DNA of 64,000 nt. It comes from Desulfurivibrionaceae bacterium. GTDB taxonomy: Bacteria > Desulfobacterota > Desulfobulbia > Desulfobulbales > SURF-16. The notes below the pieces were generated by a model. The model saw nothing but the letters and a program-made list of their open reading frames with translations. It did no database searches and had not been told where the DNA came from. Positions 2,521-41,743 of this stretch are shown here, piece after piece; the stretch's first letter is position 1, and each line of letters starts with the position of its first letter. A program made the position numbers and the translations under genes. The stretch lies in assembly GCA_031581485.1 (NCBI GenBank), contig JAVLBA010000003.1, positions 5,673-69,672 of the forward strand, given 5' to 3'.

Positions 2521-2621
2521 ATTGACATAACAAGGGTTTGCAGGTTTTTTGTTGTAATATGTTAGTTCATTTTTTTGATTTATAAATTTGTTTGAACGTA
2601 AACATTTTAGGGAGAAGTTTA

Positions 2622-3044: not shown

Positions 3045-3213
3045 AGTCCCTATTCTGGCAGTAGTTTCCGTTTTGAGATAACTCATTGATTTTACGTTAT
3101 GTGATTTTCTGTCTTTCGTAAACTTTTTAGCATTGCACGATGTAACCGGGAGAAGGTGACGTCCATAAGATTATAAGTTTCTTTTCTCCTTGTCGGGTTT
3201 TAATCTCACGCGT

Positions 3214-3270
3214 ATGCTACGCAAAACTCGCATAGATGCTCCGGGTGCCTTGCATCATTTTATCTGTCGT
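3214..3270 (+). pseudogene. N-terminal fragment of an IS200-like / REP-associated Y1 transposase
   Basis: MLRKTRIDAPGALHHFICR matches the conserved N-terminus (..RIDAPGALHH.I.RG) of Y1 transposase-like proteins. Similarity stops exactly where the short dispersed repeat at 3272-3300 begins, so only about 19 codons remain. Confidence 0.5.
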
Positions 3271-3271
3271 G

Positions 3272-3300
3272 TAAATTATGGGGTCAGGTTCAAATTAAAG
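3272..3300. repeat. Dispersed ~30-bp repeat, copy 1 (TAAATTATGGGGTCAGGTTCAAATTAAAG)
   Basis: Related copies at 8111-8140 (TAAATTATGGGGTTCGAGTCAAATTAAAAC), in inverted form at 8165-8184, and at 16011-16035 (AATTGAGGTCAGAGTAAAATTAAAT). Confidence 0.7.
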
Positions 3301-3559
3301 CAGATTCGACATTCAGTCCGACATCCTGGTGCAGGCCGCGCATTTCCTTCCCGGGACATCCTGGGTCGCCTCTGCTGGTGCTCCGTACTCTCCCTTCCAC
3401 TGTTTGGTTTTTGGGGATTTTGCCCGCAAAATCGTTGAAAGGGCTAAGAAATGACGAGGACACGTAGCGATAGTCCCTGGTTATACTCATATAGGGTTAT
3501 TTTTTGTCTGCCTTTGATCTCTTCCAATCTAAGATCGAAAAAAATATCAATTCAACGTT

Positions 3560-7127: not shown

Positions 7128-7596
7128 CCGTCATATGCAGTTCCATAACGTGCTGAAAGTTATTAACCAGGATGTAACTTCGCACCGTCACCTGTAAAAA
7201 AGCGGTGGAAGGAGAATGAATGAACTCTTCAAGGTATGGGTGCCGAGTTAGATAGAGGGACCGACAGGCTGCAAGATCATCTTCCCCAACTTCACTGACG
7301 ACACCCATAATAGTGACGGCCTCGGCCTGGTGAAAATCAACCTCGGTATTGCTGCGACTGTCCACCAACAGCGAGACACGCGGTTCTGATATGAGGTTGA
7401 TAAATTTTCTGGTAGCCTTCGGAGTTACAAAATAGATATGTCTCAAATCTTTGCTATGAGCAAAAGCAATCAGGCTACTATAGGGTTGGCCATGGCGCTG
7501 TGACGCCAAAACAGCTAAAAGCTGACTTTCCAGAAGGGCAGAAATTTTTTTACGAATTTCTTTTTCCGTTTCCTGAGGTTGAGTCACGATAATCAC
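7105..7596 (-). CDS. Pyridoxamine 5'-phosphate oxidase-like FMN-binding protein
   Basis: 163 aa with LAVLASQRHGQPYSSLIAFAHSKDLRHIYFVTPKATRKFINLISEPRVSLLVD, the split-barrel PNPOx-like pattern. Overlaps the downstream gene by 23 nt, consistent with an operon. Confidence 0.7.
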   Translation of the reverse strand: MIIVTQPQETEKEIRKKISALLESQLLAVLASQRHGQPYSSLIAFAHSKDLRHIYFVTPKATRKFINLISEPRVSLLVDSRSNTEVDFHQAEAVTIMGVVSEVGEDDLAACRSLYLTRHPYLEEFIHSPSTAFLQVTVRSYILVNNFQHVMELHMTDDHDIFA

Positions 7597-7669
7597 CTAA
7601 TATAATTTATATTTTTTACCCGAACATTGTCTGCCCAAATTCCACCACTGGCCCATGCCACATTTTTCT

Positions 7670-7702
7670 TTGACAAATAATAGCAGTTTCCTATCCTATA
7701 AT
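7670..7702 (+). promoter_or_regulatory. Possible promoter elements upstream of the small-ORF array
   Basis: Perfect TTGACA (7670-7675) and perfect TATAAT (7697-7702), but the 21-nt spacer is too long for a canonical sigma70 promoter. An alternative -10, TATCCT, sits at 16-nt spacing. Confidence 0.3.
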
Positions 7703-7742
7703 ATCAACCTTATCTTGTTTATCTTAACAAAAGAAGAGCATT

Positions 7743-7862
7743 ATGCCTGATCTAGAAAAATCCGGTGGCTACGAAAGTATGGTGTGGGTTCGGGACAAGG
7801 ATGGCAAGGAGTATGCCTATAAGGTAATGGAACCTTACAAGATTAACTCAACGAAAAGGTGA
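7743..7862 (+). CDS. Small ORF, divergent and 3'-replaced paralogue of the 60-aa protein
   Basis: MPDLEKSGGYESMVWVRDKDGKEYAYKVMEPYKINSTKR*. The core GGYESMVWVRDKDGKEYA parallels GGFGNLVWVRDKDGKEYA of the next ORF. Its 3' end runs into the leader of the 238-bp repeat unit. Confidence 0.35.
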   Translation: MPDLEKSGGYESMVWVRDKDGKEYAYKVMEPYKINSTKR

Positions 7863-8056
7863 ACGTCATGGCCGATAAAGCACAAGGTGGATTCGGAAAT
7901 TTGGTATGGGTTCGGGATAAAGACGGAAAAGAGTATGCTTGTTCCGTTGAAGCCCTAAAAGGTAATATCAAAACAAAAGAAGAGCTTACTGAGGAGGAAA
8001 GAGAAAATTGTACGGATGTAAGCACCATCATTGGCACTGAGCGTTGGTAAATTTGG
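7819..8056 (+). repeat. 238-bp direct repeat, copy A (leader plus 60-aa ORF)
   Basis: Nearly identical to 9304-9541 (offset 1485 bp). Mismatches occur only in the first ~12 bp and last ~12 bp, plus one synonymous CGT/CGC change in the ORF. Confidence 0.95.
7868..8050 (+). CDS. Conserved-looking 60-aa protein, copy 1 (unknown function)
   Basis: MADKAQGGFGNLVWVRDKDGKEYACSVEALKGNIKTKEELTEEERENCTDVSTIIGTERW. RBS AAGGTGA lies 5 nt upstream and a terminator follows. Purifying selection is suggested by an identical second copy whose only difference is synonymous. Confidence 0.6.
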   Translation: MADKAQGGFGNLVWVRDKDGKEYACSVEALKGNIKTKEELTEEERENCTDVSTIIGTERW

Positions 8057-8074
8057 CCAGCAAACAACAGCCCA

Positions 8075-8109
8075 AACCCGCTTTGTGATTAACAGAGCGG
8101 GGTTTTTTT
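8075..8109 (+). terminator. Rho-independent terminator after small ORF copy 1
   Basis: Stem CCCGCT (8077-8082) / AGCGGG (8096-8101) followed by a T-run (8103-8109). Confidence 0.65.
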
Positions 8110-8110
8110 A

Positions 8111-8184
8111 TAAATTATGGGGTTCGAGTCAAATTAAAACAGGGAATAGAGTAAGCTGATACTCGTTTAATTTTACTCTGGCCC
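8111..8184. mobile_element. MITE-like 74-bp element with ~20-bp terminal inverted repeats
   Basis: The left end GGGGTTCGAGTCAAATTAAAAC and the reverse complement of the right end GGGCCAGAGTAAAATTAAAC are imperfect inverted repeats. The ends belong to the same family as 3272-3300 and 16011-16035. Confidence 0.5.
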
Positions 8185-8357
8185 GGACAACAGCAGTTAA
8201 TGCCTTGATATTTTTCCATATTTTTTATCTGTTCAATGCCCGTTATCTAAAGGCACCCGTCCTTACTGGTCTTTGGCCTTGTTGAAATTGAGAAGGTGAT
8301 TGTACGACGAAATGAAAATAGCGCCTGCGTGAAATGGCTGATCTGTTCAATCTTACC

Positions 8358-9221
8358 TCATTGCAAAGAAAGCAGGTACGTTCGCAAGTTTTTTGTTTGG
8401 TCGTCCAAGCCCAGCTTGCGGCGCAGATTCTTACGATGGAAGCTGATGGTGTTCACCGACACCCCCATAACATCGGCGATCTCCTGGCTGCTCTTGCCCT
8501 GGCGCACTAACGAGGCCACGTCAAGCTCTTGCGGAGTGACAAGCAAATGAAGAGATGACAGTTTATTTAAAAAAGGCGAGGCGATATCGTTAAGATTTTT
8601 TTCTATGATATCCACCAATACTTCATCTCGGCCCTTCATTTGAGCCTCTTTCAACTTCTCCACATAGGGCAGCACCAGGTTCTTGATGTTGGCTGCTATG
8701 CGCTGCTCAAGTTCCGCCAGATCACGGTCTCGATGGTCAAGCAAGACTTTTAAAGCAATATTAGCCTCTTCCAATTTGTCACTTTTTCCACGCAATTCTG
8801 CTTCTTTGACGCGAAGATCCTCTTGCGCCAGGAAAAGGGATGTAATGTTTTCATGGACAACGACAACCCAATTTTTGCCTTCACCAAGATGGTAGGGCAG
8901 TATTCTAAGATTAAACCACCGCTTTTTTGTTGGAGTGTGACAGGGATATTGGGCAACAAACTCCAGCAGATCTCCGTTTAATATCTTTTGAATGCCCAGG
9001 GCAACAAGCGCTCCTTCCTCTTCACCGGAATCTCTTGCCAGCTCACAAATATGCAGATAGTTGACACCTATGCAGTCGATTTTGCCTTCGAAACCATTGT
9101 CAGAAGCAAAATTCTGCCAGGCCCTGTTCGTCTCGACAATAATTCCTTGCTCATCAAGAACAGCAACATGGGCTGAGAGAGAGTTGACGATCCCCTGATA
9201 TAAACTATTGTCCACATGCAC
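8358..9221 (-). CDS. PAS-domain / LuxR-family (HTH) transcriptional regulator
   Basis: N-terminal PAS-like region (IVNSLSAHVAVLDEQGIIVETNRAWQNFA...), a central coiled coil, and a C-terminal LuxR-type HTH (LTPQELDVASLVRQGKSSQEIADVMGVSVNTISFHRKNLRRKLGL). Confidence 0.85.
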   Translation of the reverse strand: MHVDNSLYQGIVNSLSAHVAVLDEQGIIVETNRAWQNFASDNGFEGKIDCIGVNYLHICELARDSGEEEGALVALGIQKILNGDLLEFVAQYPCHTPTKKRWFNLRILPYHLGEGKNWVVVVHENITSLFLAQEDLRVKEAELRGKSDKLEEANIALKVLLDHRDRDLAELEQRIAANIKNLVLPYVEKLKEAQMKGRDEVLVDIIEKNLNDIASPFLNKLSSLHLLVTPQELDVASLVRQGKSSQEIADVMGVSVNTISFHRKNLRRKLGLDDQTKNLRTYLLSLQ

Positions 9222-9303
9222 TCCTTTTTGATAGTTTTTACTATTAATTATCTATCAATTTGCCTGTATTGTTTTTGCACCAATCCCTGCTTAAAGTCAA
9301 TAC

Positions 9304-9541
9304 ATAAGGCAATGAAACCTTACAAGATTAACTCAACGAAAAGGTGAACGTCATGGCCGATAAAGCACAAGGTGGATTCGGAAATTTGGTATGGGTTCGG
9401 GATAAAGACGGAAAAGAGTATGCTTGTTCCGTTGAAGCCCTAAAAGGTAATATCAAAACAAAAGAAGAGCTTACTGAGGAGGAAAGAGAAAATTGTACGG
9501 ATGTAAGCACCATCATTGGCACTGAGCGCTGGTAACTTTGT
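9304..9541 (+). repeat. 238-bp direct repeat, copy B
   Basis: See 7819-8056. This copy lies in the divergent promoter region of the PAS-LuxR gene. Confidence 0.95.
9353..9535 (+). CDS. Conserved-looking 60-aa protein, copy 2 (unknown function)
   Basis: Amino-acid sequence identical to 7868-8050, with the same RBS. Transcribed divergently from the PAS-LuxR regulator. Confidence 0.6.
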   Translation: MADKAQGGFGNLVWVRDKDGKEYACSVEALKGNIKTKEELTEEERENCTDVSTIIGTERW

Positions 9542-9543
9542 AA

Positions 9544-9575
9544 GAGTCGCACTCTTTAAGAGAAGAGTGCGACTC
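9544..9575 (+). terminator. Strong hairpin after small ORF copy 2 (no U-tract)
   Basis: Perfect 12-bp stem GAGTCGCACTCT (9544-9555) / AGAGTGCGACTC (9564-9575) with an 8-nt loop. The downstream sequence is not T-rich, so terminator function is uncertain. Confidence 0.4.
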
Positions 9576-9771
9576 CATATTTAAAGAAGAACGACATGAA
9601 ACATTGCAGCTTGGATAATTTTAAAGAGATCCTCCTTTCATGGATTAAGGACAAATATATCCGCAAGTTAAAAGTGGGTCTGCAAGGACCTTTCTGAACA
9701 ACTGATTTCTGTCCAGTGTAATTCTTGAAATAAAATAATGATAACAATGAGTAATACCTAGGAGAACTCGA

Positions 9772-10167
9772 ATGGAACTGAAAGAATATTTCTCAGATAT
9801 AAAAGGCGTTGGTGTATTGGCAACAAGTGATGGAGTAGGCGTAGTTAATGCAGCAATATACTCTCGACCTCATGTTGAGGATAAAGACATTGTCGCATTT
9901 ATCATGCGAGAGCATTTAACCCATAAAAACTTGCAGGAAAACCGGCACGCTAATTATCTCTTCCTTGAGGATGGCCAAGGCTATCAGGGAGTGCGTCTCT
10001 TTATGACCAAAATAGACGAGACTAACGACTCCGATCTCATCCAGGCCATGACTAGGCGGCACCTTACCCCAGAAGAGGACTGCAAGAAGGGGCCTAAACA
10101 TGTAGTACGGTTTCAGGTGGACAAGGTCCTCAAACTTGTTGGTGGCGAAGAAATTCCTCTGGAGTAA
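9772..10167 (+). CDS. Pyridoxamine 5'-phosphate oxidase-like flavin-binding protein
   Basis: 131 aa. GVGVLATSDGVGVVNAAIYSRPHVEDKDIVAFIMREHLTHKNLQENRHANYLF fits the small split-barrel flavoprotein pattern. RBS AGGAGA lies upstream. Confidence 0.6.
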   Translation: MELKEYFSDIKGVGVLATSDGVGVVNAAIYSRPHVEDKDIVAFIMREHLTHKNLQENRHANYLFLEDGQGYQGVRLFMTKIDETNDSDLIQAMTRRHLTPEEDCKKGPKHVVRFQVDKVLKLVGGEEIPLE

Positions 10168-10306
10168 TTGGCGGAATTTCTATATTCGTCACCACAAAAA
10201 AACATAATTTGAGTGTTGGGGCTTTTTTTTATACATTTAAGGAGTTAGGCAATGCCCATATTGTGCCTTGATGCTCTCTGGGCATAAACAAAGGAAGGCG
10301 TCTGTT

Positions 10307-11089
10307 ATGATTCGACTGCTGGCAATGGAACTGATTTTTATGTTTGCCTTTATGAGCCTCTGGTTCGCCATTGCCCTGTGGCGCAAACGAAACGACATTG
10401 CCGACATTGTTTGGGGTCTTGGTTTTATTGTCGCCACTTTGGTAGCTATCGTTATCAACTGGCCCATTTCAGGAAGGGCGTGGCTGGTAAGCGCTCTCGT
10501 TTTAATCTGGGGCGGGAGGCTGGCAATCCGCATCTTTCTTCGTAGCCGGGGCAAGGGGGAAGACAGGCGTTACAAGGAATGGCGAGAAAAATGGGGTAAA
10601 CATTTCCTCATCGGCTCTTTCCTGCAAGTCTTTATGCTCCAGGGTTTACTCATCCTGATCATTGCCAGCCCTGTTCTTCTGGTTATCCATTCAGGTAATA
10701 CTTCTCTCAACCTTTTGGATTTCATTGGCGTCCTGATCTGGCTCATTGGCTTTAGTTTTGAAATGATGGGCGACTACCAGCTTGACCGCTTCACTCAAAA
10801 CCCTGCCAACAAGGGCAAGGTCATGAAATATGGCCTGTGGCGCTACAGCAGACACCCAAATTATTTCGGTGAGGTTCTGCTTTGGTGGGGTTTTTTCACA
10901 ATGGCTCTGTCCGTGGACATGGGTTGGCTGAGCCTGATCGGGCCACTGACCATTACTTTTTTGATCCTCAAGGTCTCCGGCATCCCCCTGGCTGAAAAAA
11001 GATTAAAAAATAAACCAGAATTTCAAGAGTATATGCAAAAAACCAGCGTCTTTATTCCGCTTCCGCCCAAAAAGGAGAATCCGTCATGA
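10307..11089 (+). CDS. DUF1295 / steroid 5-alpha-reductase-like membrane protein
   Basis: Multi-pass membrane protein with the C-terminal signature GLWRYSRHPNYFGEVLLWWGFF. ATG at 10307 follows AAGGAAGG. The ORF-track start at 10268 is also possible. Confidence 0.75.
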   Translation: MIRLLAMELIFMFAFMSLWFAIALWRKRNDIADIVWGLGFIVATLVAIVINWPISGRAWLVSALVLIWGGRLAIRIFLRSRGKGEDRRYKEWREKWGKHFLIGSFLQVFMLQGLLILIIASPVLLVIHSGNTSLNLLDFIGVLIWLIGFSFEMMGDYQLDRFTQNPANKGKVMKYGLWRYSRHPNYFGEVLLWWGFFTMALSVDMGWLSLIGPLTITFLILKVSGIPLAEKRLKNKPEFQEYMQKTSVFIPLPPKKENPS

Positions 11090-11502
11090 TCCATGACCTG
11101 AAAGTCTACCTCTGTCTGATTCCGATCTTCTTTATCATCGATTATATCTGGCTCGGTAAAATCATGAGCGGCTTCTACCTTAAAGAGTTGGGCTCCATGG
11201 CCAGGGTTTCTAAGAGTAATTTTGATCCGGTAATTTGGGCCGCCATTGTCGTCTACCTCCTCATCCCTTTGGGTATCGTTCTCTTTGTCCTGCCCGGACT
11301 GCCCGATCAAAATTTTATGGTGCCGGCACTGATCAAAGGCATGCTCTATGGCCTGGTTTTATATGGGGTCTACGATATGACTAACCATTCCCTGCTCCAG
11401 AGCTGGTCGATAAAGATGTCCCTGGTGGATATGGCCTGGGGCGCTTTTATTAACAGCGTCGCTACCTTGGCCGGCAAACACTTTGATGTCCTGTTAAGAT
11501 AA
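11086..11502 (+). CDS. DUF2177-like small membrane protein
   Basis: 138 aa with four predicted TM segments. N-terminus MIHDLKVYLCLIPIFFIIDYIWLGKIMSGFY. Its 4-nt overlap (ATGA) with the upstream gene suggests coupling. Confidence 0.65.
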   Translation: MIHDLKVYLCLIPIFFIIDYIWLGKIMSGFYLKELGSMARVSKSNFDPVIWAAIVVYLLIPLGIVLFVLPGLPDQNFMVPALIKGMLYGLVLYGVYDMTNHSLLQSWSIKMSLVDMAWGAFINSVATLAGKHFDVLLR

Positions 11503-11512
11503 AGGAGAAAAA

Positions 11513-12757
11513 ATGAGGATTGCCATTATCGGCAGCGGCATATCGGGCTTAACTGCTGCTCACCTTCTTCAGAGGGATTTTGACATCCAGATATTTGAGG
11601 CCAATGATTATATCGGCGGCCATACCCACACCATTCCTGTGCAGACCGAGTCCGGAAGCTACATGGTGGATACCGGCTTTATTGTCTTTAACGAGACGAC
11701 CTATCCAAACTTTTGCAAAATTATTGACGGGCTGGGGGTTAGATCAAAGCCCACAGAAATGACCTTTAGTGTTAAATGTGCTCAGTCTGGCGTTGAGTAT
11801 AACGCCCACTCATTAAATACCCTCTTTTCCCAACGTAAAAACATTTTCTGTCCGGCCCATTACCGGATGATCTACGACATCTTTCGTTTTAGGAGCGAAT
11901 TTGAAAATCTGTTGGATCACAAATACGATCATGAACCGCTGGTTCCTTATCTTAAAAATCGTGGTTATGGTGAACGTTTCATCAACCTTTTCGTGCTGCC
12001 CATTACAGCCTCGCTCTGGTCTGCCGGTTTGGATAAATCAAAAAATTTTCCTCTGGGCACCTTTGTCCGCTTCTTTAAGAACCACGGCTTTCTCGATATC
12101 AAGAATCAATTTCAGTGGCGGGTGATTCAAGGTGGCTCCCAGGCATATGTTCCCAGACTGATAGAGTCCTTTAAGGATAAAATCGAACTGCACTGCCCTG
12201 TCACATCAATAGAGAGAAAAGACGATCAGGTGATGGTCAAACACCAGCAGGGCAGCGATAGTTTTGATCAGGTCATCCTCGCCGTGCATAGCGACCAGGC
12301 CCTTGCCCTGTTGGCAGATCCGTCTGAAGCCGAAAACGAGATCTTGGGCGCCATCGGCTATCAATCCAATGATGTCATTCTTCACACTGACAGCGCTCTC
12401 CTGCCCCGCAAAGAGTCGATCTGGGCCAGCTGGAATTATGCCATTCCCAAAGAGACTCAGGATACGGCATCTCTGAATTATGACATGAATATCCTCCAGG
12501 GCATTTCGGCTCCGGAAGAGTTTGTGGTGTCGTTAAACCAGCGCCAACATATTGATACTGCTCGAATTATTGGCGAGTATCTTTACCAGCATCCGCTCTA
12601 CACGCCTCAGGTACCGGCGGCCCAAAACCGCCACGCAGAAATTAGCGGCGTCAACCGGACCCATTATTGCGGAGCCTACTGGGGGTATGGCTTCCATGAG
12701 GATGGCGTCAAAAGCGGCCTGAAGGTGGCTCAATTCTTCGGCAAGGAATTGGTATGA
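11513..12757 (+). CDS. FAD-dependent oxidoreductase (amine-oxidase / desaturase-like)
   Basis: N-terminal dinucleotide fold MRIAIIGSGISGLTAAHLL...FEANDYIGGHTHT and C-terminal GAYWGYGFHEDG. This is the typical partner of DUF1365 and CFA-synthase-like genes. Confidence 0.8.
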   Translation: MRIAIIGSGISGLTAAHLLQRDFDIQIFEANDYIGGHTHTIPVQTESGSYMVDTGFIVFNETTYPNFCKIIDGLGVRSKPTEMTFSVKCAQSGVEYNAHSLNTLFSQRKNIFCPAHYRMIYDIFRFRSEFENLLDHKYDHEPLVPYLKNRGYGERFINLFVLPITASLWSAGLDKSKNFPLGTFVRFFKNHGFLDIKNQFQWRVIQGGSQAYVPRLIESFKDKIELHCPVTSIERKDDQVMVKHQQGSDSFDQVILAVHSDQALALLADPSEAENEILGAIGYQSNDVILHTDSALLPRKESIWASWNYAIPKETQDTASLNYDMNILQGISAPEEFVVSLNQRQHIDTARIIGEYLYQHPLYTPQVPAAQNRHAEISGVNRTHYCGAYWGYGFHEDGVKSGLKVAQFFGKELV

Positions 12758-13521
12758 ACAGCTGCATATATCAAGGTGAGGTCAGGCATGCCCGCTACCA
12801 ACCGGTGACTAACGGTTTTCACTTCAGGCTGTTTATGATGTATCTCGATCTCTCAGAATTAGACGAAGTCTTTACCAAGAGGTGGCTTTGGTCCACAAAT
12901 CATTGCAATCTGGCCTATCTGCGCCGCAAGGATCATTTTGGCGATCCCGCCATCACCATTGATCAGGCAGTGCGTGATTTGGTGGCAGAAAAAACAGGCA
13001 CCCCCTGTCAAGGCCCTATCCGCATGCTTTGCCACCTGCGCTACTGGGGCTACTGCTTTAACCCGGCCACCCTTTTTTATTGTTATGATCAAAGCGGTAA
13101 AGAGCTTGAAACCATTATCGTCGAAATTCACAATACCCCCTGGGGCGAAGTGTTTTGCTATGTCCTTGACCGGAAAAATGAGCAACGCCAGGACCAGACC
13201 AGAACCTATCGGTTTGATAAAGATTTCCATGTCTCGCCGTTCATGGACATGGATGTTTCCTACACATGGCAGTTTAAGGAACCAGGCGATGACCTCAAGG
13301 TTCTGATGATGGACTTCCACGATGACAAAAAAATCTTTGAGGCCGAACTGATGTTACATCGCCGGGAGATAAACGGTAAAAATCTGGCAGCAATGCTCAC
13401 CAAACATCCCTTGATGACCTTCAAGGTAACTGCAGGCATTTACTGGCAGGCGCTGCGGCTCTGGAAAAAAGGATCACCTTTTTATACTCACCCCGCTAAA
13501 AGCGATGAGGTGGAGGTTTAG
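12754..13521 (+). CDS. DUF1365 family protein
   Basis: MNSCIYQGEVRHARYQPVTNGFHFRLFMMYLDLSELD is the characteristic DUF1365 N-terminus. Overlaps the upstream gene by 4 nt. Confidence 0.75.
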   Translation: MNSCIYQGEVRHARYQPVTNGFHFRLFMMYLDLSELDEVFTKRWLWSTNHCNLAYLRRKDHFGDPAITIDQAVRDLVAEKTGTPCQGPIRMLCHLRYWGYCFNPATLFYCYDQSGKELETIIVEIHNTPWGEVFCYVLDRKNEQRQDQTRTYRFDKDFHVSPFMDMDVSYTWQFKEPGDDLKVLMMDFHDDKKIFEAELMLHRREINGKNLAAMLTKHPLMTFKVTAGIYWQALRLWKKGSPFYTHPAKSDEVEV

Positions 13522-13528
13522 TACAAAC

Positions 13529-14815
13529 ATGAACAAAAAACTGATCTCTAAAGAAACAGCCCTGGTCTTGCCCGCCTCTTCCATCGGCCACAGGCTTTTC
13601 ACCCTTAATCTCTGCCGTCATATTGTTTTACGACGGCTGGCGGCTCTTCAGGACGGTGTTATTGAGATTGAAGATGGTGATGATGTCTTTTTGGTCGGCA
13701 GAAAAGAAAAAAACAATTTGCAGGCCAAGATAGAGGTCAAAAATCCGATGTTTTACAGAGCCATGGTGTTTGGCGGCAGTATCGGTGCCGGAGAATCGTA
13801 CATGCGTGATGAGTGGAGTTGCAGCAATCTCACCGATCTCATTCGGCTCATCGTCTTGAACCAGGATGTCCTGGATACCATTGATGCCGGGCTTGCGAAG
13901 ATTACGGCGCCCATCTACAAGCTTTTCCATGTCCGCCGCAAAAACACCAAGAACGGCAGTAAAAAAAATATCAGCGCCCATTACGATTTGGGCAATAATT
14001 TTTATCGCCTCTTTCTCGACGAATCCCTGGCCTACTCCTGCGGCATTTTCAAAGACGAGCAGGCCTCCCTGCATGAGGCCTCCCTGGAAAAATTTGAACG
14101 GATCTGTAAAAAGCTTGCTCTTTCAGAAGATGACCACCTTCTGGAAATTGGCACGGGCTGGGGAGGTTTTGCCATCTATGCTGCCCAAAATTACGGCTGC
14201 CGGGTAACCACCACCACAATTTCAAAAGAGCAGCACGATCATGCCGAAAAACGCATCAAAGAAGCCGGCTTGTCAGGTCGAATCGACCTCCTCTTTCAAG
14301 ACTATCGTGAGCTTGGCGGAAAATTCGACAAGATAGTCGCCATTGAGATGATCGAGGCGGTGGGGCACCATTTTTACCAGACCTTTTTTAAATGCTGTTG
14401 TGACCTGTTAAAACCGTACGGCACCATGCTTGTTCAGGCTATTACCATTCAGGACCAGGCCTATGAGCAACATAAGAACACAGCTGACTTCATCAGCTGC
14501 TACATCTTTCCAGGCTGCTGTATTCCTTCTATTACTGCCATGATTCAGGCCTCTACCAAGGCATCTGAAATGAAACTCTTTCACCTTGAAGATATCACCC
14601 CCCATTACGCCGCTACCTTGCGAATCTGGCGGCAAAATTTCTTAGACAGGATCGATGAGGTTCGCGATCTGGGATTCAGTGAAAGCTTTATAAAGATGTG
14701 GGAGTTTTATTTATGCTATTGCGAGGCCGGTTTTGCCGAGCGCTACCTCGGCAATGTCCAGATGATCTTCAGCAAGCCGGGATGCCGCCAATCGCCAATT
14801 TTGCCGAATTTGTAA
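13529..14815 (+). CDS. Cyclopropane-fatty-acyl-phospholipid-synthase-family SAM methyltransferase
   Basis: NISAHYDLGNNFYRLFLDESLAYSCGIF, the SAM motif LLEIGTGWGGFAIYAA, and C-terminal MWEFYLCYCEAGF are CFA synthase family hallmarks. The start is ambiguous (ATG at 13505 or 13529). Confidence 0.85.
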   Translation: MNKKLISKETALVLPASSIGHRLFTLNLCRHIVLRRLAALQDGVIEIEDGDDVFLVGRKEKNNLQAKIEVKNPMFYRAMVFGGSIGAGESYMRDEWSCSNLTDLIRLIVLNQDVLDTIDAGLAKITAPIYKLFHVRRKNTKNGSKKNISAHYDLGNNFYRLFLDESLAYSCGIFKDEQASLHEASLEKFERICKKLALSEDDHLLEIGTGWGGFAIYAAQNYGCRVTTTTISKEQHDHAEKRIKEAGLSGRIDLLFQDYRELGGKFDKIVAIEMIEAVGHHFYQTFFKCCCDLLKPYGTMLVQAITIQDQAYEQHKNTADFISCYIFPGCCIPSITAMIQASTKASEMKLFHLEDITPHYAATLRIWRQNFLDRIDEVRDLGFSESFIKMWEFYLCYCEAGFAERYLGNVQMIFSKPGCRQSPILPNL

Positions 14816-14818
14816 CAC

Positions 14819-15349
14819 ATGCTGATTGCCTTTAATTTAATAAGCTTCCAGATCGGCTGGTTTGCCTCTGTCCTCGGCGCAGCCAATGACATGTCCTGGC
14901 TTGGGCCGATGGTGGTGGTCTTATTCTTTGCTGCGCACCTCAAAATAAATGGCCACATGGTGCGGGAAATCAGCCTGGGACTGAAGATCATAATTATCGG
15001 TTTTGTCACCGATACCCTGCTCACCATCTATGGAGTCTACACCCCAAAACCCTTCTTTTTCCCAGCACCGTACAGTCCTCCCTGGCTGATTTTTTTGTGG
15101 CTCAACTTTGCCACCCTGCTTAATGTTTCATTAAAATGGCTCAGCCACCGCTATCTGCTCGCTGTTTTTTTAGGTGGCACAGGAGGTGCTCTGGCTTACT
15201 ACGGAGGTAGTGTATTTGGGGTCATGACTTTCAATCCGCCCCTTGTTGTTAATTTGCTGATTACCGGCCTGGTCTGGGCCGCTCTCACCCCGCTTTTTTT
15301 TATCCTTTCACGCTTTATTGACCAAAAGCTGGCACAACAAACAACCTAA
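14819..15349 (+). CDS. DUF2878-like membrane protein
   Basis: 176-aa polytopic membrane protein starting 4 nt after the CFA-like gene. This is the position DUF2878 usually occupies in such clusters. Confidence 0.6.
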   Translation: MLIAFNLISFQIGWFASVLGAANDMSWLGPMVVVLFFAAHLKINGHMVREISLGLKIIIIGFVTDTLLTIYGVYTPKPFFFPAPYSPPWLIFLWLNFATLLNVSLKWLSHRYLLAVFLGGTGGALAYYGGSVFGVMTFNPPLVVNLLITGLVWAALTPLFFILSRFIDQKLAQQTT

Positions 15350-15375
15350 ACTTTATAAGCTCAGAAAAGGACACC

Positions 15376-15957
15376 ATGAAAAAACAAAGCGTTATCCTCT
15401 ACGGCTTAACCACCTGCGTTTACTGCAAGGCCGCCAAGAAAATGCTAGAGGATCTGAACATTGAATACCGGGCCATAGAGGCAGATCTTCTTGCCGATAA
15501 TGAACGTCAGGAGGTGATTGACGAGCTTAAAAAACTCAATCCGGCTTGCACCTTTCCCACAGTGGTGGTTGGCGATAAGGTCATCACAGGCTACAAGGCC
15601 CAAGAGATCAAAGAAGCTTTGGGGATTAGAACGGAGGTGGATGATCTTTATGAGCGCTTAAAAAAAATCAACGAACCAAAGGGCTATCTTTTCAATGGTG
15701 AAAAGGAAAAGACCTTTGAGCTTTTGCGAAGCCTGCTGATCAACAAGGATAGATACGGCTATATGGCCTGCCCTTGCCGGCTGGCCTGCGGAGATAGGGA
15801 GAAAGATAGGGATATTATCTGCCCCTGTAATTATCGAGAGCCCGACGTCAAAGAGTTTGGCAGCTGCTACTGCGGACTCTATGTTTCAAAGGAATGGTAT
15901 ACAGGCAAGATAGAACGGGTCGTCATCCCGGAAAGAAGATCTGCTGACCTTTATTGA
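15376..15957 (+). CDS. Glutaredoxin-like domain fused to a ferredoxin:thioredoxin reductase catalytic-subunit-like domain
   Basis: N-terminal VILYGLTTCVYCKAAKKMLE (CxxC glutaredoxin fold). C-terminal ACPCRLACGDREKDRDIICPCNYREPDVKEFGSCYCGLY gives a CPC...CPC...CYC array like the FTR [4Fe-4S]/disulfide site. Confidence 0.75.
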   Translation: MKKQSVILYGLTTCVYCKAAKKMLEDLNIEYRAIEADLLADNERQEVIDELKKLNPACTFPTVVVGDKVITGYKAQEIKEALGIRTEVDDLYERLKKINEPKGYLFNGEKEKTFELLRSLLINKDRYGYMACPCRLACGDREKDRDIICPCNYREPDVKEFGSCYCGLYVSKEWYTGKIERVVIPERRSADLY

Positions 15958-16053
15958 CAATAGTTATATCATGCCAATAGGAGATTTTTCCGAAGATGCC
16001 ATGTGCGAGTAATTGAGGTCAGAGTAAAATTAAATTTGTTCATTAACTAAGCG

Positions 16054-16157
16054 GTAGAGGTCATAGAAGGAGGGCAAGCAAGCTTTTGACTTTTGTTGGT
16101 TAATTACGGGAAGGACCTTTTGGGCGGAATGCTGTCCGTTTCCCCAGCAGAATGGGG
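16054..16157. repeat. ~100-bp dispersed repeat, copy 1
   Basis: Aligns by eye at roughly three quarters identity with 27125-27223. Shared core: TTTTGACTTTTRTTGGTTAA...AGGACCTT.TG...GGAATGCTG..CGTTTCC.CAGC..ATGGG. Confidence 0.7.
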
Positions 16158-16193
16158 AGTTATAGTCAAATCTGGTGTTTGAGAAAATTGTTA

Positions 16194-16367
16194 TCAAATG
16201 CCCCCCTGTTCATTTCTGAATGTAGCATAATGGCTGAGGAGTTCCTGGAGTTCAACTTCAACAGCATCTGAAATTAATTGGCGGGCTCCGGTCCACAGCA
16301 ACTCTGTCAGTGGATCTCCACAAATCTTTCCTGGCTTTTTAAGAGCAATGATTTTATTCTCAGTCAT
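16194..16367 (-). pseudogene. IS256-family (Mutator-type) transposase, N-terminal 57-codon fragment
   Basis: MTENKIIALKKPGKICGDPLTELLWTGARQLISDAVEVELQELLSHYATFRNEQGGI* matches the conserved IS256 transposase N-terminus (DPLTELLR.GA..L...A.EAE..EFL) and then stops. Confidence 0.65.
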
Positions 16368-16482
16368 GACGTATCCTGTTGGAATCAAGTTTTGGTGAAC
16401 TATTCCAACAGGATACGTCATTTTTTATCTTGCGGCTCCCTCAAACACCACTTTGGAGCATACCTCGTAGCCGGGTCATACC

Positions 16483-17373
16483 ATGTTTAGTGATAACAGC
16501 AGACTTTATGAACTGACAGATACCACCTCTCCAGCTGAAACCCTCGCTGAGATTAAAAAAATCCTGCTCATGCTCACCCCTTCCCCGGACCCGTCGCCAA
16601 TCGAAAAGGTATACGGGCAGATCACCCGTCTCTTCAACGGCGAAATTCCCGGATACAAGGCCAATAATACAAAATATCATAACCTGGAGCATACCTGTTC
16701 CAGTACCCTTGCTTCTGCAAGACTTATTCATGGTTTGCATGTCCAGGGACAAATTTTCTCCCCCAGGCTTGTGCAGCTTTGCCTGATCGGAACACTTTTT
16801 CATGATACGGGGCTTATCCAGCCCGAGGAAGAAGCGGAGGGTACAGGAGCCCAGCATACCATTGGCCACGAGGGCCGTTCAATATCCCTCATGGAAAAGT
16901 ATCTCGCTAAAAACGGCTTTTCGCAGGAGGACAGCCGCGATTGCGGCCATATGATCAAATGTACCGAGCTTTTCTTTCCCCTGGAAGAGATACCCTTCAG
17001 CTCTGAAGAGGTCAGAACCCTGGGAAAGGTTCTTGGCACCGCCGACCTGGTCGCCCAGATGGCAGACAGGGATTATCAGGAAAAACTCCCTTTGCTATTC
17101 CTGGAGTTTCAGGAAGCCGGGCTGGAAGGGTTTGAGACCCCCCTGGAGCTTTTCAGTAAAACAGAGGAGTTTTATCGCAAGGTGGTGCGTAAAAGGATGA
17201 CCGGTGTGCTGGGAGGAATTTCTTCTGCAGCTCTCTACCATTTCAGGGAGAGGTGGAACATAGACAAGAATCTTTATGAGGAAGCAATCAAATATAATAT
17301 AAGGCGCATGAAGGAAACAGTGACGGAGTCTCTTCTGCAGCTCTCCATTGTTTCAGGGGGAGGTGGCACATAG
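16483..17373 (+). CDS. HD-domain metal-dependent phosphohydrolase
   Basis: YHNLEHTCSSTLASARLIHGL ... LIGTLFHDTGLI provides the H...HD motif of the HD superfamily. The 3' end carries an internal ~50-bp duplication (see findings). Confidence 0.7.
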   Translation: MFSDNSRLYELTDTTSPAETLAEIKKILLMLTPSPDPSPIEKVYGQITRLFNGEIPGYKANNTKYHNLEHTCSSTLASARLIHGLHVQGQIFSPRLVQLCLIGTLFHDTGLIQPEEEAEGTGAQHTIGHEGRSISLMEKYLAKNGFSQEDSRDCGHMIKCTELFFPLEEIPFSSEEVRTLGKVLGTADLVAQMADRDYQEKLPLLFLEFQEAGLEGFETPLELFSKTEEFYRKVVRKRMTGVLGGISSAALYHFRERWNIDKNLYEEAIKYNIRRMKETVTESLLQLSIVSGGGGT

Positions 17374-17386
17374 ATAGCGCAGGCAA

Positions 17387-18847
17387 TCAATTCGTGGAAA
17401 AGATATACTGGACAGGTTGGATTCCGAAATGGGCAGGATGATGGGTCTCGGTGATTTCCCTGACATAGTTGCCTGTCTTGGAATCGCGCTCCTCCAGGTT
17501 GATTATTCCTGCTTTTTTATAACCCCCTCCACTCTCTTTTTCCAGAATGCAGACCAAGGGTCTTTTGGAAAAATCCCTGCTTGGCGAACTGACCACCAGG
17601 GCCAGCTCGCCAGTGTCAAGCCTCAGCAGAGTTCCGATCGGGTATAATCCAAGGATATTGATGAAAACCTTTATGAGGATGGGATCATAGTCTTTACCGG
17701 CCCGATCGAACATGTAGCCCAGGGCCCGGTCCGGACTCAGCAGAGATTTCCGGTAAGCCCGCGACGATGTTAAGATATCATATTTATCGGCAATGGAAAT
17801 AATCTTCCCGAAAAGGGTTAAGGGCTTTTTCCAGTCGGCATGGGGATAGCCGGACAGGTCATATTTAAGATGGTGTTCAAAAAGCGGCACCAGGATTCTG
17901 GCCTTGCTGTCGGGGGAGGCCTTGAGTTGCAATAACAGTCGGGCACTGTTCAGTGAATGCTCCTCAATCATTTTCAGCTCACTGTCATCCAGCTGAGCCT
18001 TTTTATGCAGAACTTGGTTGGGAATCTCAATTTTTCCAAGGTCATGAAAAAGGGCACATATGCCCAAACTCACCAAGGTACGGCGCGAGAGGTTTATACG
18101 CCTGCCGATGCACATGGATAACGTCGCCACATTCGCCGAATGTGTGAAAATGTAGTCGTCAAAAATCCGAAGCGTGCTGATGGCAGCATAAACTTCGTCA
18201 TCCTTGATAATATTCGTCGCCATCTCCTGGACTACCCGGACGGTTTTCCGTATGCCAACCTCACTCTTGTTGTCCTTGATCTTCTGGGCAACTTCTTCTA
18301 TAGAGGTCTTGACATAAGAGTAGTCTCTTTTGGCCCTTTCCCGCCGTTCTGCTTTGTCGTCCCTGTAAGAGGATTTCTGGTCATCCTGTGGTGTTTCCGA
18401 TGTTTTGACCAGTTCAACCCAGTCTATATTTTCTTCAGCAAGAGCGTCTGTGAGCCAGGTGAGAGGTTCCGGCTTTTGACCGGAATTTTCCAGCAACCGT
18501 ATGAAAGTCAGGATTTCATTTACAGAGGCATGCTTGACAGCTTCGAGTAAGCGCACGCCTTCCAGGCCGCGGCTATCAAAAAAACGTATAATATTGTCAA
18601 AAAGATTTTTTGTGTTCCTGTTGTAGATAAGTTTTTCTTCATCAACAAACAGCTGGTCATTAGCGATTTTGACCGTCAATGATTCGTTCTCCATGCATCT
18701 GTTTATTGATTCGCTGAATTTATTAATTCCCTCAATAACCAGGGTATGGGAATCACTGTGGATCCGCGCAGTTTGACATAGGCTGTAAAAGTTGTGCAGG
18801 AATTCTTCAAACTGGGAAAAGGATCTGTATTTTGCCGTATCAGTCAT
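17387..18847 (-). CDS. HD-GYP domain protein (putative c-di-GMP phosphodiesterase) with an N-terminal sensory module
   Basis: HSANVATLSMCIGRRINL...ICALFHDLGKIEIP...EHSLNSARLL...FEHHLKYDLSGYPH (HD...HHE...GYP). The ATG at 18847 overlaps the upstream stop as ATGACTGA. Confidence 0.85.
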   Translation of the reverse strand: MTDTAKYRSFSQFEEFLHNFYSLCQTARIHSDSHTLVIEGINKFSESINRCMENESLTVKIANDQLFVDEEKLIYNRNTKNLFDNIIRFFDSRGLEGVRLLEAVKHASVNEILTFIRLLENSGQKPEPLTWLTDALAEENIDWVELVKTSETPQDDQKSSYRDDKAERRERAKRDYSYVKTSIEEVAQKIKDNKSEVGIRKTVRVVQEMATNIIKDDEVYAAISTLRIFDDYIFTHSANVATLSMCIGRRINLSRRTLVSLGICALFHDLGKIEIPNQVLHKKAQLDDSELKMIEEHSLNSARLLLQLKASPDSKARILVPLFEHHLKYDLSGYPHADWKKPLTLFGKIISIADKYDILTSSRAYRKSLLSPDRALGYMFDRAGKDYDPILIKVFINILGLYPIGTLLRLDTGELALVVSSPSRDFSKRPLVCILEKESGGGYKKAGIINLEERDSKTGNYVREITETHHPAHFGIQPVQYIFSTN

Positions 18848-20600
18848 TGGTGTTTTCTCCAGTGACAGGAATGGTACTTGTCCTGTCAAAAGCTTGCCTG
18901 ATCACACTGAATCTGCTCTGTGAAGCTTTCTGGAGGGCATCCTTTGCTTGCGGAGTGTCGATCAATGCCAGGGCAACTGCTGCACCCTCACGGAATATCA
19001 ATTTTCCTGAACCCATAAAACTGTTCCACCCCCGACTCAGGAGTATTCTCCTCAGGTACGGGACAGCCATGTCGGAACCGCAGCGGCCCAGGGCCTCATA
19101 ACAGGCAAAGATGTGATCTGGTTCCTTTTGGGCTGCATTTTCTTGCAGATATTTCAACAGCATTTTTGCCTTGGTACTGGATTTATCTTTTGCAAAAGCT
19201 GCCAGGATAGAGGAGCGTATGATTTTATCAGGGTCATCAATGAACGAAAACAGCCTTTGGACGTATTGGGGATCCCTGTTAATCAACTCTTTGATCGCTT
19301 TCCGGCGTACCTTGTCAGAGGGGTGGTCGCACATCTTGAAAAGCATTTTGTTGACCCTGTCTCCCTGCAGGGAGTTCAGAATAACCAAAAGCTTGTCCCC
19401 CATCTCTGTGCCATGTTGTTCGATTATTTTTTCAAGAGGCCCGATATCGCGTTGACTGTGCTGCACTATCACTTCCGAGACCATCTGTTGTATCTCGGGA
19501 GAACTTCTTTGCATGATGACCGGCACCAGAAAAGGGATAACCTCCTGGGAACAATAATGAAGTATCTGGCCCAGAGCCCTTAACTTCTCAAGTTCACTCG
19601 TGTGCACCTGCAAGAGCTTTTCGCTGATGAGTTGAAGAATTTCAGGTTTGGATAGATCTTGGAAAAAACGTTTAATAAGGGGGCTCTGCCAATTTTGGTT
19701 AGGTGATGTTTCCGGGGAGAGGAGCGTGCGCAGTGATTGAAATAATTTGACCGCCAGATCGAATTTGTCATGCTGAATGGTTGCAACAGTCAGTTCCGAG
19801 ATGGATTTCAGAACATCGGCGAATTTCTCCTGCTCGGACTGGCTTTTAAGAATAATCAGCAACAATTCAATAAGGTCTTCTGTAAAATTCCAGCTTTCTT
19901 CCTTCTGGACCATGTGCTGAAGTATTTCGTAATCACCGGTGGAAAGCTTCAGTTGGCCATGCCCGATCGATGGATCGGCAATACTTCTGGCCTGCATGCC
20001 CTTGCGCTCAGGTCCTGCCGGTTGCGGGGAGTGGTCTTTGCCATTCTGATCAGCGCCATCTTCTGGTTGAGGAGCGGGAGGGGGGAGCTGGGAAAAATCT
20101 ATAAGCAGCATTTCCTGCCAGAAAATATCAACCGCCTTGAAATCTATATATTCAAGTTCTTCATCCGTCAGCGCGGTGACGATGTCTCCCTCGATCTCCT
20201 CTGCGAACAACCTGTATTTATGAGCTATTCTGAAAAAAGAAGCGATCTCCTCAAGGGGAAGGCCTTCTTGAAACTCAATCCATTTGATACCGTCACGATA
20301 GAGCAGGGTGATGATGTCTTCCGAGGGGGCTTGCTGTGAAACTTCATAGATGGATTCAGACTTGTAAAGGAGACGGTCTTTTTCCACCTGCACCCGCAGG
20401 TCGCCATGAGTCCTGAAAAAATTGCCGAATGGGGCAACAAGGTTTTCAAAGGATTTTATAGTTGACACATGATCTTCCGGATAGAGGCCGTAATTCCTCC
20501 ACGACTGGATAAAAATGTTGATTACCCGCCTGGCATCCTGCAATTCCTGGTCAGAAGGGGATGTTGGGGCTGGAATTTCCTGCTGTTCTTTTGTGCTCAC
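18840..20600 (-). CDS. HEAT/armadillo-repeat protein sharing its N-terminal module with the downstream HD-GYP protein
   Basis: 586 aa. The C-terminal third has HEAT-like repeats (DHPSDKVRRKAIKELINRDPQ...FIDDPDKIIRSSILAAFAKD...). The N-terminal ~170 aa align by eye with the HD-GYP N-terminus. Confidence 0.65.
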   Translation of the reverse strand: MSTKEQQEIPAPTSPSDQELQDARRVINIFIQSWRNYGLYPEDHVSTIKSFENLVAPFGNFFRTHGDLRVQVEKDRLLYKSESIYEVSQQAPSEDIITLLYRDGIKWIEFQEGLPLEEIASFFRIAHKYRLFAEEIEGDIVTALTDEELEYIDFKAVDIFWQEMLLIDFSQLPPPAPQPEDGADQNGKDHSPQPAGPERKGMQARSIADPSIGHGQLKLSTGDYEILQHMVQKEESWNFTEDLIELLLIILKSQSEQEKFADVLKSISELTVATIQHDKFDLAVKLFQSLRTLLSPETSPNQNWQSPLIKRFFQDLSKPEILQLISEKLLQVHTSELEKLRALGQILHYCSQEVIPFLVPVIMQRSSPEIQQMVSEVIVQHSQRDIGPLEKIIEQHGTEMGDKLLVILNSLQGDRVNKMLFKMCDHPSDKVRRKAIKELINRDPQYVQRLFSFIDDPDKIIRSSILAAFAKDKSSTKAKMLLKYLQENAAQKEPDHIFACYEALGRCGSDMAVPYLRRILLSRGWNSFMGSGKLIFREGAAVALALIDTPQAKDALQKASQSRFSVIRQAFDRTSTIPVTGENTND

Positions 20601-40190: not shown

Positions 40191-40279
40191 CCTCCCCGGT
40201 TTTCTCCTCTGAAATATCCCAAGAAAAAATGTATCCCTGGGTCAGGATTGCGACCCTTGTCAGGTGCGGGTGTTAGTCC

Positions 40280-40726: not shown

Positions 40727-40727
40727 G

Positions 40728-41741: not shown

Positions 41742-41743
41742 TA

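Follow-up and report, generated by a model that had tools for sequence, protein, structure and literature searches.

Why would a bacterium of an anaerobic lineage carry genes for a lipid modification that is known to depend on O2, and carry them beside a gene for a ferredoxin-linked disulfide reductase? We addressed this question for an operon in a metagenome-assembled genome (MAG) of a Desulfurivibrionaceae bacterium, a member of the order Desulfobulbales, which is an anaerobic lineage. The operon lies on contig JAVLBA010000003.1 (assembly GCA_031581485.1) in a stretch of 64,000 nucleotides (nt; positions 5,673 to 69,672, forward strand) that we refer to as the window. It contains genes of the families of the furan fatty-acid proteins UfaD, UfaO and UfaM, and its last gene encodes a glutaredoxin fused to a ferredoxin:thioredoxin reductase-like domain (Grx-FTR). 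We think it likely that the operon forms the membrane-lipid branch of an island for photo-oxidative or oxygen stress and that the Grx-FTR gene is co-regulated with it.

The operon and its candidate furan-pathway genes

Seven + strand open reading frames (ORFs) were found at 10307-15957 with spacings between neighbors of -4, +10, -4, -17, +3 and +26 nt, in agreement with an earlier note on the window that had described the genes as overlapping or at most 26 nt apart. Domains were assigned by Pfam profile search, from which the E-values given here are taken, and NCBIfam was used as a second library. All seven proteins gave strong and essentially full-length Pfam matches, and every domain assignment of the earlier note was upheld. 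NCBIfam returned only sub-threshold matches, to cyclopropane fatty acid (CFA) synthase and to FtrB/Grx.

Gene 1 (10307-11089, +) encodes a DUF1295 membrane protein with a steroid-5-alpha-reductase or ICMT-like fold (PF06966, 6e-73, residues 19-246 of 260; weaker matches to Steroid_dh, PEMT and ICMT), and a DUF1295 gene holds the same position in the related loci L086, L087, L090 and L094 (labels beginning with L are our own). Gene 2 (11086-11502, +) overlaps gene 1 by 4 nt and encodes a small DUF2177 membrane protein (PF09945, 5e-34). Gene 3 (11513-12757, +) encodes an FAD enzyme of the amine-oxidase family (Amino_oxidase PF01593, 2.7e-24; NAD_binding_8 PF13450, 2.7e-14) and is a UfaD-like candidate acyl-chain desaturase; its N-terminus, MRIAIIGSGISGL, has the GxGxxG dinucleotide-binding motif of the amine-oxidase-type FAD fold. 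It overlaps by 4 nt the DUF1365 gene downstream, gene 4 (12754-13521, +), a UfaO-like candidate for an O2-dependent furan-forming enzyme (PF07103, 4.3e-82, residues 5-248 on profile positions 1-234 of 235). Gene 5 (13505-14815, +) encodes a CFA-synthase-like S-adenosylmethionine (SAM) methyltransferase that we refer to as the cluster-type CMAS (PF02353, 1.1e-84). Gene 6 (14819-15349, +) encodes a DUF2878 membrane protein (PF11086, 4e-37), and a DUF2878 gene follows the CMAS gene in L001, L017, L090 and L094 as well. Gene 7 (15376-15957, +) encodes the Grx-FTR fusion of 193 amino acids (Glutaredoxin, 6e-13; FeThRed_B PF02943, 1e-18).

For gene 1 the most likely start is ATG 10307 and not TTG 10268, which would open a longer ORF, since a ribosome-binding site, AAGGAAGG, lies upstream of the ATG and the resulting 260 amino acids are as in relatives. 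Gene 5 probably starts at ATG 13529 because the 428 amino acids that this gives match L001 and L086; a 7-nt gap would then replace the 17-nt overlap with gene 4. A scan for promoters and terminators gave counts near chance, with no convincing internal signal and no intergenic + strand terminator-like site above chance. The packing of seven genes on one strand, together with the retention of the six-gene order in unrelated contigs (L094, L086), is far above chance.

In Rhodobacter sphaeroides the FAD protein UfaD (RSP1091) desaturates 11Me-12t-18:1, with product seen only in the presence of O2, and the DUF1365 protein UfaO (RSP1090) builds the furan ring by inserting an oxygen atom from O2, its reductant being unknown; both of these characterized steps require O2 in vivo (Lemke et al. 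2020, PMC7380195). Catalytic residues of UfaO have not been defined in the literature, and RSP1089 (CFA-like), RSP1088 and RSP1087 are dispensable for furan fatty acids in this organism (PMC7380195). In R. palustris the contiguous genes RPA2571-2570-2569 correspond to UfaD-UfaO-UfaM and suffice for the pathway (PMC7380195). We found that genes 3, 4 and 5 agree in family and in order with RPA2571-2570-2569 and RSP1091-1089; the earlier note had described the trio as UfaD/UfaO/UfaM-like. As a proxy for the Ufa proteins we used a plasmid cluster of Azospirillum thermophilum that is linked to ChrR and an extracytoplasmic function (ECF) sigma factor, the genes of which adjoin those for an FAD-oxidoreductase, a DUF1365 protein, a CFA-like remnant, DUF3833 and an SDR protein. 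The gene 3 product is 40% identical over 403 amino acids (E 3e-108) to WP_109333787.1, encoded beside ChrR and the ECF sigma factor; the gene 4 product is 33% identical to the DUF1365 protein of that cluster and 31-39% identical to proteobacterial DUF1365 proteins, and the C-terminus of the gene 5 product is 39% identical to the cluster's CMAS.

The best solved relative of gene 3 is the amine oxidase LkcE (1e-37). The DUF1365 protein had no match by sequence in the PDB; AlphaFold2 modeled it with good confidence (pLDDT 88.6) as a beta-rich barrel, for which Foldseek gave weak calycin, FABP and nitrobindin-like matches (best E 4e-3, TM 0.37/0.55). The modeled fold is compatible with acyl-chain binding, the matches being too weak to indicate a mechanism. 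Gene 5 aligns to residues 35-373 of Escherichia coli CFA synthase (CFAS, 6bqc), which indicates that the lipid-binding N-domain is present, and it retains the equivalents of Cys139, Glu239 and Tyr317 of that enzyme. A Gln takes the place of His266, a bicarbonate ligand of the E. coli enzyme, in gene 5 and in every cluster-embedded homolog examined, that of Azospirillum included. Gene 5 also scores below the cut-offs of the NCBIfam equivalog models for CFA synthase (280.4 against 400 for NF008686, 278 against 600 for NF053839). On its scores and its incomplete set of bicarbonate ligands gene 5 thus falls outside the E. coli Cfa equivalogs, and the low scores together with the Gln place it in a distinct cluster-type CMAS subfamily, apart from the ordinary Cfa.

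We also considered 10-methyl fatty-acid synthesis of the BfaA/BfaB type and set it aside, as BfaA belongs to a different FAD family and DUF1365 is not known to take part in the BfaA/BfaB system. A second, shorter CMAS gene (344-348 amino acids) and a B12-binding radical-SAM gene were observed beside the cluster in L091 (770-1804) and L094 (13130-15892), and these may provide additional, FufM-like methylation steps.

A DNA photolyase gene (3560-4969, -; Pfam) lies in the same island as the first six genes of the operon (10307-15349), and the two together have the gene content of a sigma-E/ChrR singlet-oxygen regulon. Together with two adjoining genes, for a 734-amino-acid PPDK_N/PEP-utilizer (swivel-domain) protein (4923-7127, -; Pfam) and a PNPOx protein (7105-7596, -; Pfam), the photolyase gene constitutes the island's second arm; this trio is conserved and recurs close to Grx-FTR in L008, L009 and L013. 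The closest DUF1365 homologs (55-88% identity) are in Desulfobulbales, Desulfobacterales and Nitrospirota MAGs and in Desulfosediminicola ganghwensis. Around the clusters of relatives we found a consistent set of genes connected with light, UV and oxidant damage, for photolyase, UvdE, YbgA-like (DUF523/DUF1722), PNPOx, SRPBCC, NmrA/SDR, DUF3833, chalcone-isomerase-like, lipocalin, SOUL and DUF2878 proteins. In Chlamydomonas, singlet oxygen co-induces CFA1/2, DUF1365, DUF2177, DUF1295 and SOUL proteins and GPX5 (PMC4067076). The gene content, the family memberships, the packing of the operon and its recurrent neighborhood were all observed directly, and they make it probable that the region forms the lipid branch of a conserved set of photo-oxidative stress genes. 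The suggestion in the earlier note of an oxygen/ROS-defense lipid system fits these surroundings. Its view that an O2-linked pathway is unexpected in an anaerobe found no support as worded, since the operon lies within a photo-oxidative stress island and its close homologs (55-63% identity) occur commonly among MAGs of Desulfobacterota and Nitrospirota; O2 dependence is to be expected and poses no paradox because O2 is itself the stress. A literature search turned up no specific account of such fatty acids, the furan type, from sulfate-reducing bacteria.

The Grx-FTR protein and its linkage to the lipid genes

The Grx-FTR protein has the CxxC of glutaredoxin (C14/C17) followed by C132-P-C134, C149-P-C151 and C164-Y-C166, and all eight cysteines are invariant in 31 homologs. 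It matches 7pwe over its full length (E 1e-83, residues 4-191) and, with the FTR-like domain, 4tpu (6e-31), and its N-terminal domain matches the Methanosarcina glutaredoxins 3nzn and 5cax. We found no paper in the literature on 7pwe or on Grx-FTR fusions. Ferredoxin:disulfide reductases (FDRs) of archaea and bacteria are [4Fe-4S] enzymes that reduce thioredoxin-like proteins (PMC6262447; PMC7278568). The position of the histidine in the CHC motif of plant FTR is occupied by Tyr, Phe or Leu in the Grx-FTR homologs (CYC in the window protein), and no gene for an FTR variable subunit was found among the window ORFs scanned. Both observations place Grx-FTR in the FDR-type branch, apart from the plant-type heterodimer. 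Gene 7 is thus predicted from its motifs to encode a [4Fe-4S] ferredoxin:disulfide reductase with a built-in Grx acceptor domain. The family is very large (>7,500 matches), and both domains were present in all of the top 120. In many Desulfobacterota the two domains are encoded by separate, overlapping genes (L086 16673-17292; L090 6085-6689; e.g. L040-L085), as seen from two tblastn segments in different frames or from ORFs of 86-96 and 110-115 amino acids, whereas the proteins of the window and of 7pwe are fused. An NCBIfam model for a double-selenoprotein FtrB also gave a sub-threshold match.

We then scanned genomes for Grx-FTR, taking one genome per species (80 loci, flanks of at most 10 kb), and searched the flanks by tblastn with the window proteins. 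Lipid-cluster genes were found near Grx-FTR in 7 of the 16 closest, Desulfobulbales-labeled loci (L006, L008, L009, L011, L014, L017, L044), and at none of the 64 others, among them Desulfobacterales, Syntrophales and methanogens, even at E 1e-3. The synteny of Grx-FTR with the cluster thus recurs within 10 kb in seven of the sixteen closest Desulfobulbales species. We estimated chance linkage at ~0.5% per genome (20-kb span, 4-Mb genome), and the observed proximity is far above this, the estimate disregarding shared ancestry.

The arrangement of the genes varied considerably between loci. DUF2878 is followed by Grx-FTR after a 5-nt gap in L002 and L006. The reverse is seen in L017, where Grx-FTR comes first and is followed by DUF2177-DUF1295-FAD-DUF1365-CMAS-DUF2878, and Grx-FTR is also upstream of the cluster in L014. 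L044 has the order FAD-DUF1365-CMAS, then a LuxR-PAS gene, then Grx-FTR, and at three loci (L008, L009, L011) the cluster lies on the opposite strand to Grx-FTR, 2-6 kb away. Among eleven loci of the window type that were anchored on DUF1365, Grx/FTR was present in four (the window, L001, L086, L090), as split genes after a YbgA-like gene in L086 and as split genes divergent from the operon in L090. The linkage thus spans two divergent cluster types (31-48% identity) as well as fused and split forms. Such varied orders, with Grx-FTR first in L017, last in L002, and divergent and split in L090, suggest selection on proximity and not a single inherited accident.

In L001, an 82%-identical relative, a YbgA-like gene on the opposite strand lies between DUF2878 and Grx-FTR, and the 26-nt junction of the window keeps a short motif, ATAAGCTC, from upstream of the L001 Grx-FTR. 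This suggests that loss of the YbgA-like gene produced the tight Grx-FTR cap. In Desulfosediminicola the lipid cluster and Grx-FTR are unlinked; D. ganghwensis is a carrier of the lipid cluster, and D. flagellatus of Grx-FTR beside glutathione peroxidase. The cap that the earlier note had seen at the level of the operon is thus particular to this lineage and not a general feature.

One explanation for the linkage gives Grx-FTR a dedicated role in making the lipids. It would pass low-potential electrons of ferredoxin to the UfaO-like oxygenase, or keep a Cys-containing methyltransferase or desaturase reduced, and furan or modified fatty acids would then be made at trace O2 without an aerobic supply of reductant. 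The gap in the known pathway would be filled in this way, as Lemke et al. give the reductant of UfaO as unknown (PMC7380195). Grx-FTR is translationally close to DUF2878 (26 nt in the window, 5 nt in L002), directly upstream of the cluster in L017, and split and divergently adjacent in L090. Furthermore, in L092 a Flavin_Reduct and Pyr_redox_2 pair stands downstream of DUF2878 at the equivalent position, as would be expected of a lineage-specific electron donor module. However, 7 of the 11 window-type loci have a complete cluster and no Grx-FTR within reach; one of these loci (L094) has a six-gene order identical to that of the window and lacks only gene 7, and in L001 an opposite-strand gene separates the two. 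Unlinked Grx-FTR genes (L003, L012) adjoin genes for glutathione peroxidase and a 2Fe-2S ferredoxin, a setting typical of general thiol and peroxide defense, and most members of the family are unlinked to lipid genes. In addition, the proteobacterial pathway needs three genes only (PMC7380195). A dedicated role in lipid chemistry, with direct electron supply from Grx-FTR to the UfaO/UfaD-like enzymes, seems doubtful to us as an account of the linkage. A link that is loose, restricted to a lineage and dispensable to the cluster fits co-membership in one stress regulon, which would combine lipid protection, thiol and peroxide repair, and DNA photorepair. Of the coupling claimed in the earlier note, the recurrence near the cluster stands; the link is one of island or regulon, and the reductant-driven variant did not emerge from the comparison.

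The candidate regulator and the stress island

A LuxR(GerE)-PAS transcription regulator (8358-9221, -; GerE 1.8e-12, weak PAS_4 match) is the candidate regulator of the island. Homologs with 49-57% identity are neighbors either of Grx-FTR or of the lipid cluster in L002, L044, L081, L086, L087, L095 and L096, and in three of these (L087, L095, L096) the gene is divergent from UvdE-DUF1295-...-CMAS. The PAS domain showed no LOV signature. We found no ECF sigma factor (sigma-70 r2/r4) and no ChrR among the island ORFs scanned, where LuxR-PAS is the sole regulator.

The LuxR-PAS gene is flanked by a 237-nt direct repeat (98% identical; 7819-8055 and 9304-9540), each copy of which carries a gene for a two-Cys protein of 60 amino acids (copy 1, 7868-8050, +; copy 2, 9353-9535, +); a truncated third copy of the gene (7743-7861) lies upstream of copy 1. 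Four copies are present in L086, where they precede successive stress-island operons. The protein gave 65 matches at NCBI, all from Desulfobulbales-type sequences and all annotated as hypothetical. Its two cysteines, C25 and C48, are invariant. Selection on the gene is purifying: of its codon changes, 21-25 are synonymous and 7-10 are not. No family was found for it in Pfam or NCBIfam, and its AlphaFold2 model was poor (pLDDT 59.8). A palindrome that looks perfect, TGATAGTTTTTACTATTA (9229-9246), lies in the divergent promoter region between the LuxR-PAS gene and copy 2 and is a candidate operator. As an exact sequence it is unique in the window, and sites resembling it precede three of the copies in L086. 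With three mismatches allowed, 5 matches were observed in the window where 3.2 were expected, which is no excess over chance, and none was directly upstream of gene 1. Since these relaxed matches are no better than chance, we regard the palindrome as a lead only.

These features allow a more far-reaching proposal, in which the furan-type pathway has been rewired in Desulfobulbales. Grx-FTR, fused or split, would serve as the missing electron donor or activator for the UfaO/UfaD-like enzymes, which would draw on low-potential electrons and trace O2 to build lipids that scavenge oxygen, and LuxR-PAS with the multi-copy two-Cys protein would form a new redox or light circuit replacing sigma-E/ChrR. 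We consider it unlikely that both parts of this proposal hold together.

Another explanation is that the operon makes products that do not depend on O2, such as mid-chain methyl-branched, methylene or cyclopropane-like chains for general membrane adaptation. The FAD enzyme would then be a reductase or rely on a different electron acceptor, and the role of DUF1365 would be other than oxygen insertion. This is consistent with the anaerobic host lineage, with a DUF1365 protein that has no recognizable cofactor site and is modeled only as a lipid-binding-barrel-like fold, and with a methyltransferase in which the N-domain is of the phospholipid type and most residues of the CFAS active site are retained. 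The extra CMAS and B12-radical-SAM genes with the cluster in L091 and L094 would also fit. However, the neighbors (photolyase, UvdE, glutathione peroxidase, SOUL) are specific to damage by light, UV and oxygen, both characterized steps require O2 in vivo (PMC7380195), and the same gene set is induced by singlet oxygen in an alga (PMC4067076). We regard O2-independent products as quite improbable.

That the adjacency is functionally meaningless, a horizontally acquired and rearrangement-prone low-GC island that by chance carries a common redox gene along with the lipid cluster, agrees with its base composition, the insertion sequence interrupting the L086 region and the highly variable gene order, yet is very improbable given the co-location in 7 of 16 related species against ~0.5% per genome (an estimate that ignores shared ancestry) and a linkage that holds across both cluster types and for fused and split Grx/FTR.

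The island is compositionally distinct and extends over ~1.8-20.6 kb, with a GC content at third codon positions of 0.29-0.64 inside against 0.63-0.79 in the flanks, and it may have been acquired horizontally (~1800-20600). Besides the photolyase, the PPDK_N/PEP-utilizer protein, the PNPOx genes, the LuxR-PAS regulator, the copies of the 60-amino-acid gene, the lipid operon and Grx-FTR, it contains genes for an HD-GYP-like and a HEAT-repeat protein. Directly upstream of the operon is a second gene with a PNPOx-like small flavoprotein fold (9772-10167, +; weak PNPOx_N match, 3.6e-4), homologs of which (45-65% identity) adjoin the cluster or Grx-FTR in L007, L013, L086, L088, L090 and L092. The homologous region of L086 is broken by a DDE_Tnp_1 transposase (L086 12244-14076), and the locus seems liable to rearrange. 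Downstream of Grx-FTR, a short ORF (16194-16421, -) resembles the N-terminus of an IS256-type transposase; we suspected a transposase remnant there and set it aside, as Pfam gave no support. Scans of the window for tRNA and Rfam features found none.

Core chromosome makes up the right half of the window (rpmF-plsX-fabH...fabG-acpP-fabF, SHMT, ribD, ribBA, ftsK). Its fatty-acid operon (43586-51359) has the order rpmF-plsX-fabH-(acyl-CoA dehydrogenase)-etfB-etfA-fabG-acpP-fabF, in which the acyl-CoA dehydrogenase and EtfAB trio stands at the usual place of fabD and etfA has an N-terminal 4Fe-4S domain. Two further lipid-related loci are nearby: an Aas-like AMP-binding/PP-binding/acyltransferase fusion, within 22277-25003 (-), and a phospholipid transport set of the MlaE-MlaF-MlaA-MlaC type at 38635-42391 (+).

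Proposed mechanism and comparison with known systems

We propose that O2, together with light or UV, would switch the island on, probably through the adjacent LuxR-PAS regulator, which would replace the sigma-E/ChrR pair of proteobacteria. For the chemistry we infer from R. sphaeroides and R. palustris that the CFA-like methyltransferase would methylate a monounsaturated phospholipid acyl chain, that the UfaD-like FAD enzyme would desaturate the methylated chain to a conjugated methyl-diene, and that the UfaO-like DUF1365 protein would form a furan fatty acid with an oxygen atom taken from O2. Such fatty acids act in the membrane as antioxidants, scavenging singlet oxygen and radicals. The DUF1295, DUF2177 and DUF2878 proteins would be membrane accessory proteins of the module. 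Grx-FTR would be co-expressed as a thiol-repair arm, having become the last gene of the operon after the loss of the YbgA-like gene, and electrons would pass from ferredoxin to its [4Fe-4S]/disulfide center, on to its own Grx CxxC and finally to oxidized protein thiols or peroxidases.

Several observations weigh against this proposal. The assignment of genes 3-5 as counterparts of UfaD, UfaO and UfaM is a putative one, drawn from family, gene order and the proxy cluster of Azospirillum. The change from His to Gln at the bicarbonate-ligand position of CFAS sets the cluster-type CMAS apart, and gene 5 may not be a UfaM-type methylase at all, since RSP1089, the CFA-like gene within the R. sphaeroides operon, is dispensable there. 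UfaM, a SAM-dependent cis-vaccenate 11-methyltransferase, is RSP2144 in R. sphaeroides, with RSP1089 as a paralog, but in R. palustris it is the gene of the cluster itself, RPA2569. Grx/FTR was absent within reach in seven of the eleven DUF1365-anchored loci (L087, L088, L091, L092, L094, L095, L096), and no ferredoxin gene was found in the island. Finally, LuxR-PAS is a lead as regulator because of its adjacency. We nevertheless favor the lipid arm of an oxygen-stress island as the reading of this operon.

By its families, the lipid module appears to be the already known UfaD/UfaO-type singlet-oxygen module. The features that vary are the association with Grx-FTR specific to Desulfobulbales, a LuxR-PAS regulator in the apparent place of sigma-E/ChrR, and the small two-Cys protein. 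The bacterial route to furan fatty acids is known in detail from no more than two Alphaproteobacteria, which are aerobic or phototrophic. The same module, well conserved, in anaerobic, sulfur-cycling Desulfobulbales and in Nitrospirota would mean that these organisms are equipped for exposure to light and O2 at oxic-anoxic interfaces, and its products would offer candidates for lipid biomarkers that record the exposure of sulfate reducers to O2. Grx-FTR would provide a concrete candidate for the electron donor of the ring-forming step, and LuxR-PAS with the 60-amino-acid protein is a possible substitute for sigma-E/ChrR. If the link to Grx-FTR is one of co-regulation only, the locus is an ordinary but coherent stress island.

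Comparison with known systems places the operon closest to the RSP1091-1087 operon with ufaM and to RPA2571-2568, which represent the furan fatty-acid pathway of the sigma-E/ChrR singlet-oxygen regulon (PMC7380195). As in these, an FAD gene is followed by a DUF1365 gene and then by a CFA-like methyltransferase gene, with a small membrane protein downstream and a genomic association with photolyase. In contrast to them, the host is an anaerobic member of Desulfobulbales, the operon opens with DUF1295 and DUF2177 and lacks an SDR gene of the RSP1087 type, and Grx-FTR is appended; moreover, LuxR-PAS and the multi-copy 60-amino-acid gene are present and no sigma-E/ChrR pair was found. Gene 5 shares with E. 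coli CFAS (6bqc) its two-domain architecture and SAM-binding motif, but if it is UfaM-like its expected product would by analogy be a methyl-branched alkene and not a cyclopropane.

In the SAK1-dependent singlet-oxygen response of Chlamydomonas the same families as in the operon are co-regulated, together with glutathione peroxidase and SOUL (PMC4067076). Unlike those of the operon, these genes are eukaryotic and dispersed and are not accompanied by an FTR-like gene. With the FDR/FTR systems (7pwe, 4tpu and the FTR of plants and cyanobacteria) Grx-FTR shares the six cysteines of CPC...CPC...CxC for the [4Fe-4S] cluster and the redox-active disulfide. Like an FDR it is single-subunit, and its N-terminal Grx domain is placed exactly as in 7pwe. 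Classical FTR has CHC, with His, and a variable subunit where Grx-FTR has CYC and a fused Grx, and the FDR of M. acetivorans has a rubredoxin domain in the place of the Grx. In contrast to all of these known systems, the gene for Grx-FTR sits inside a lipid-modification operon.

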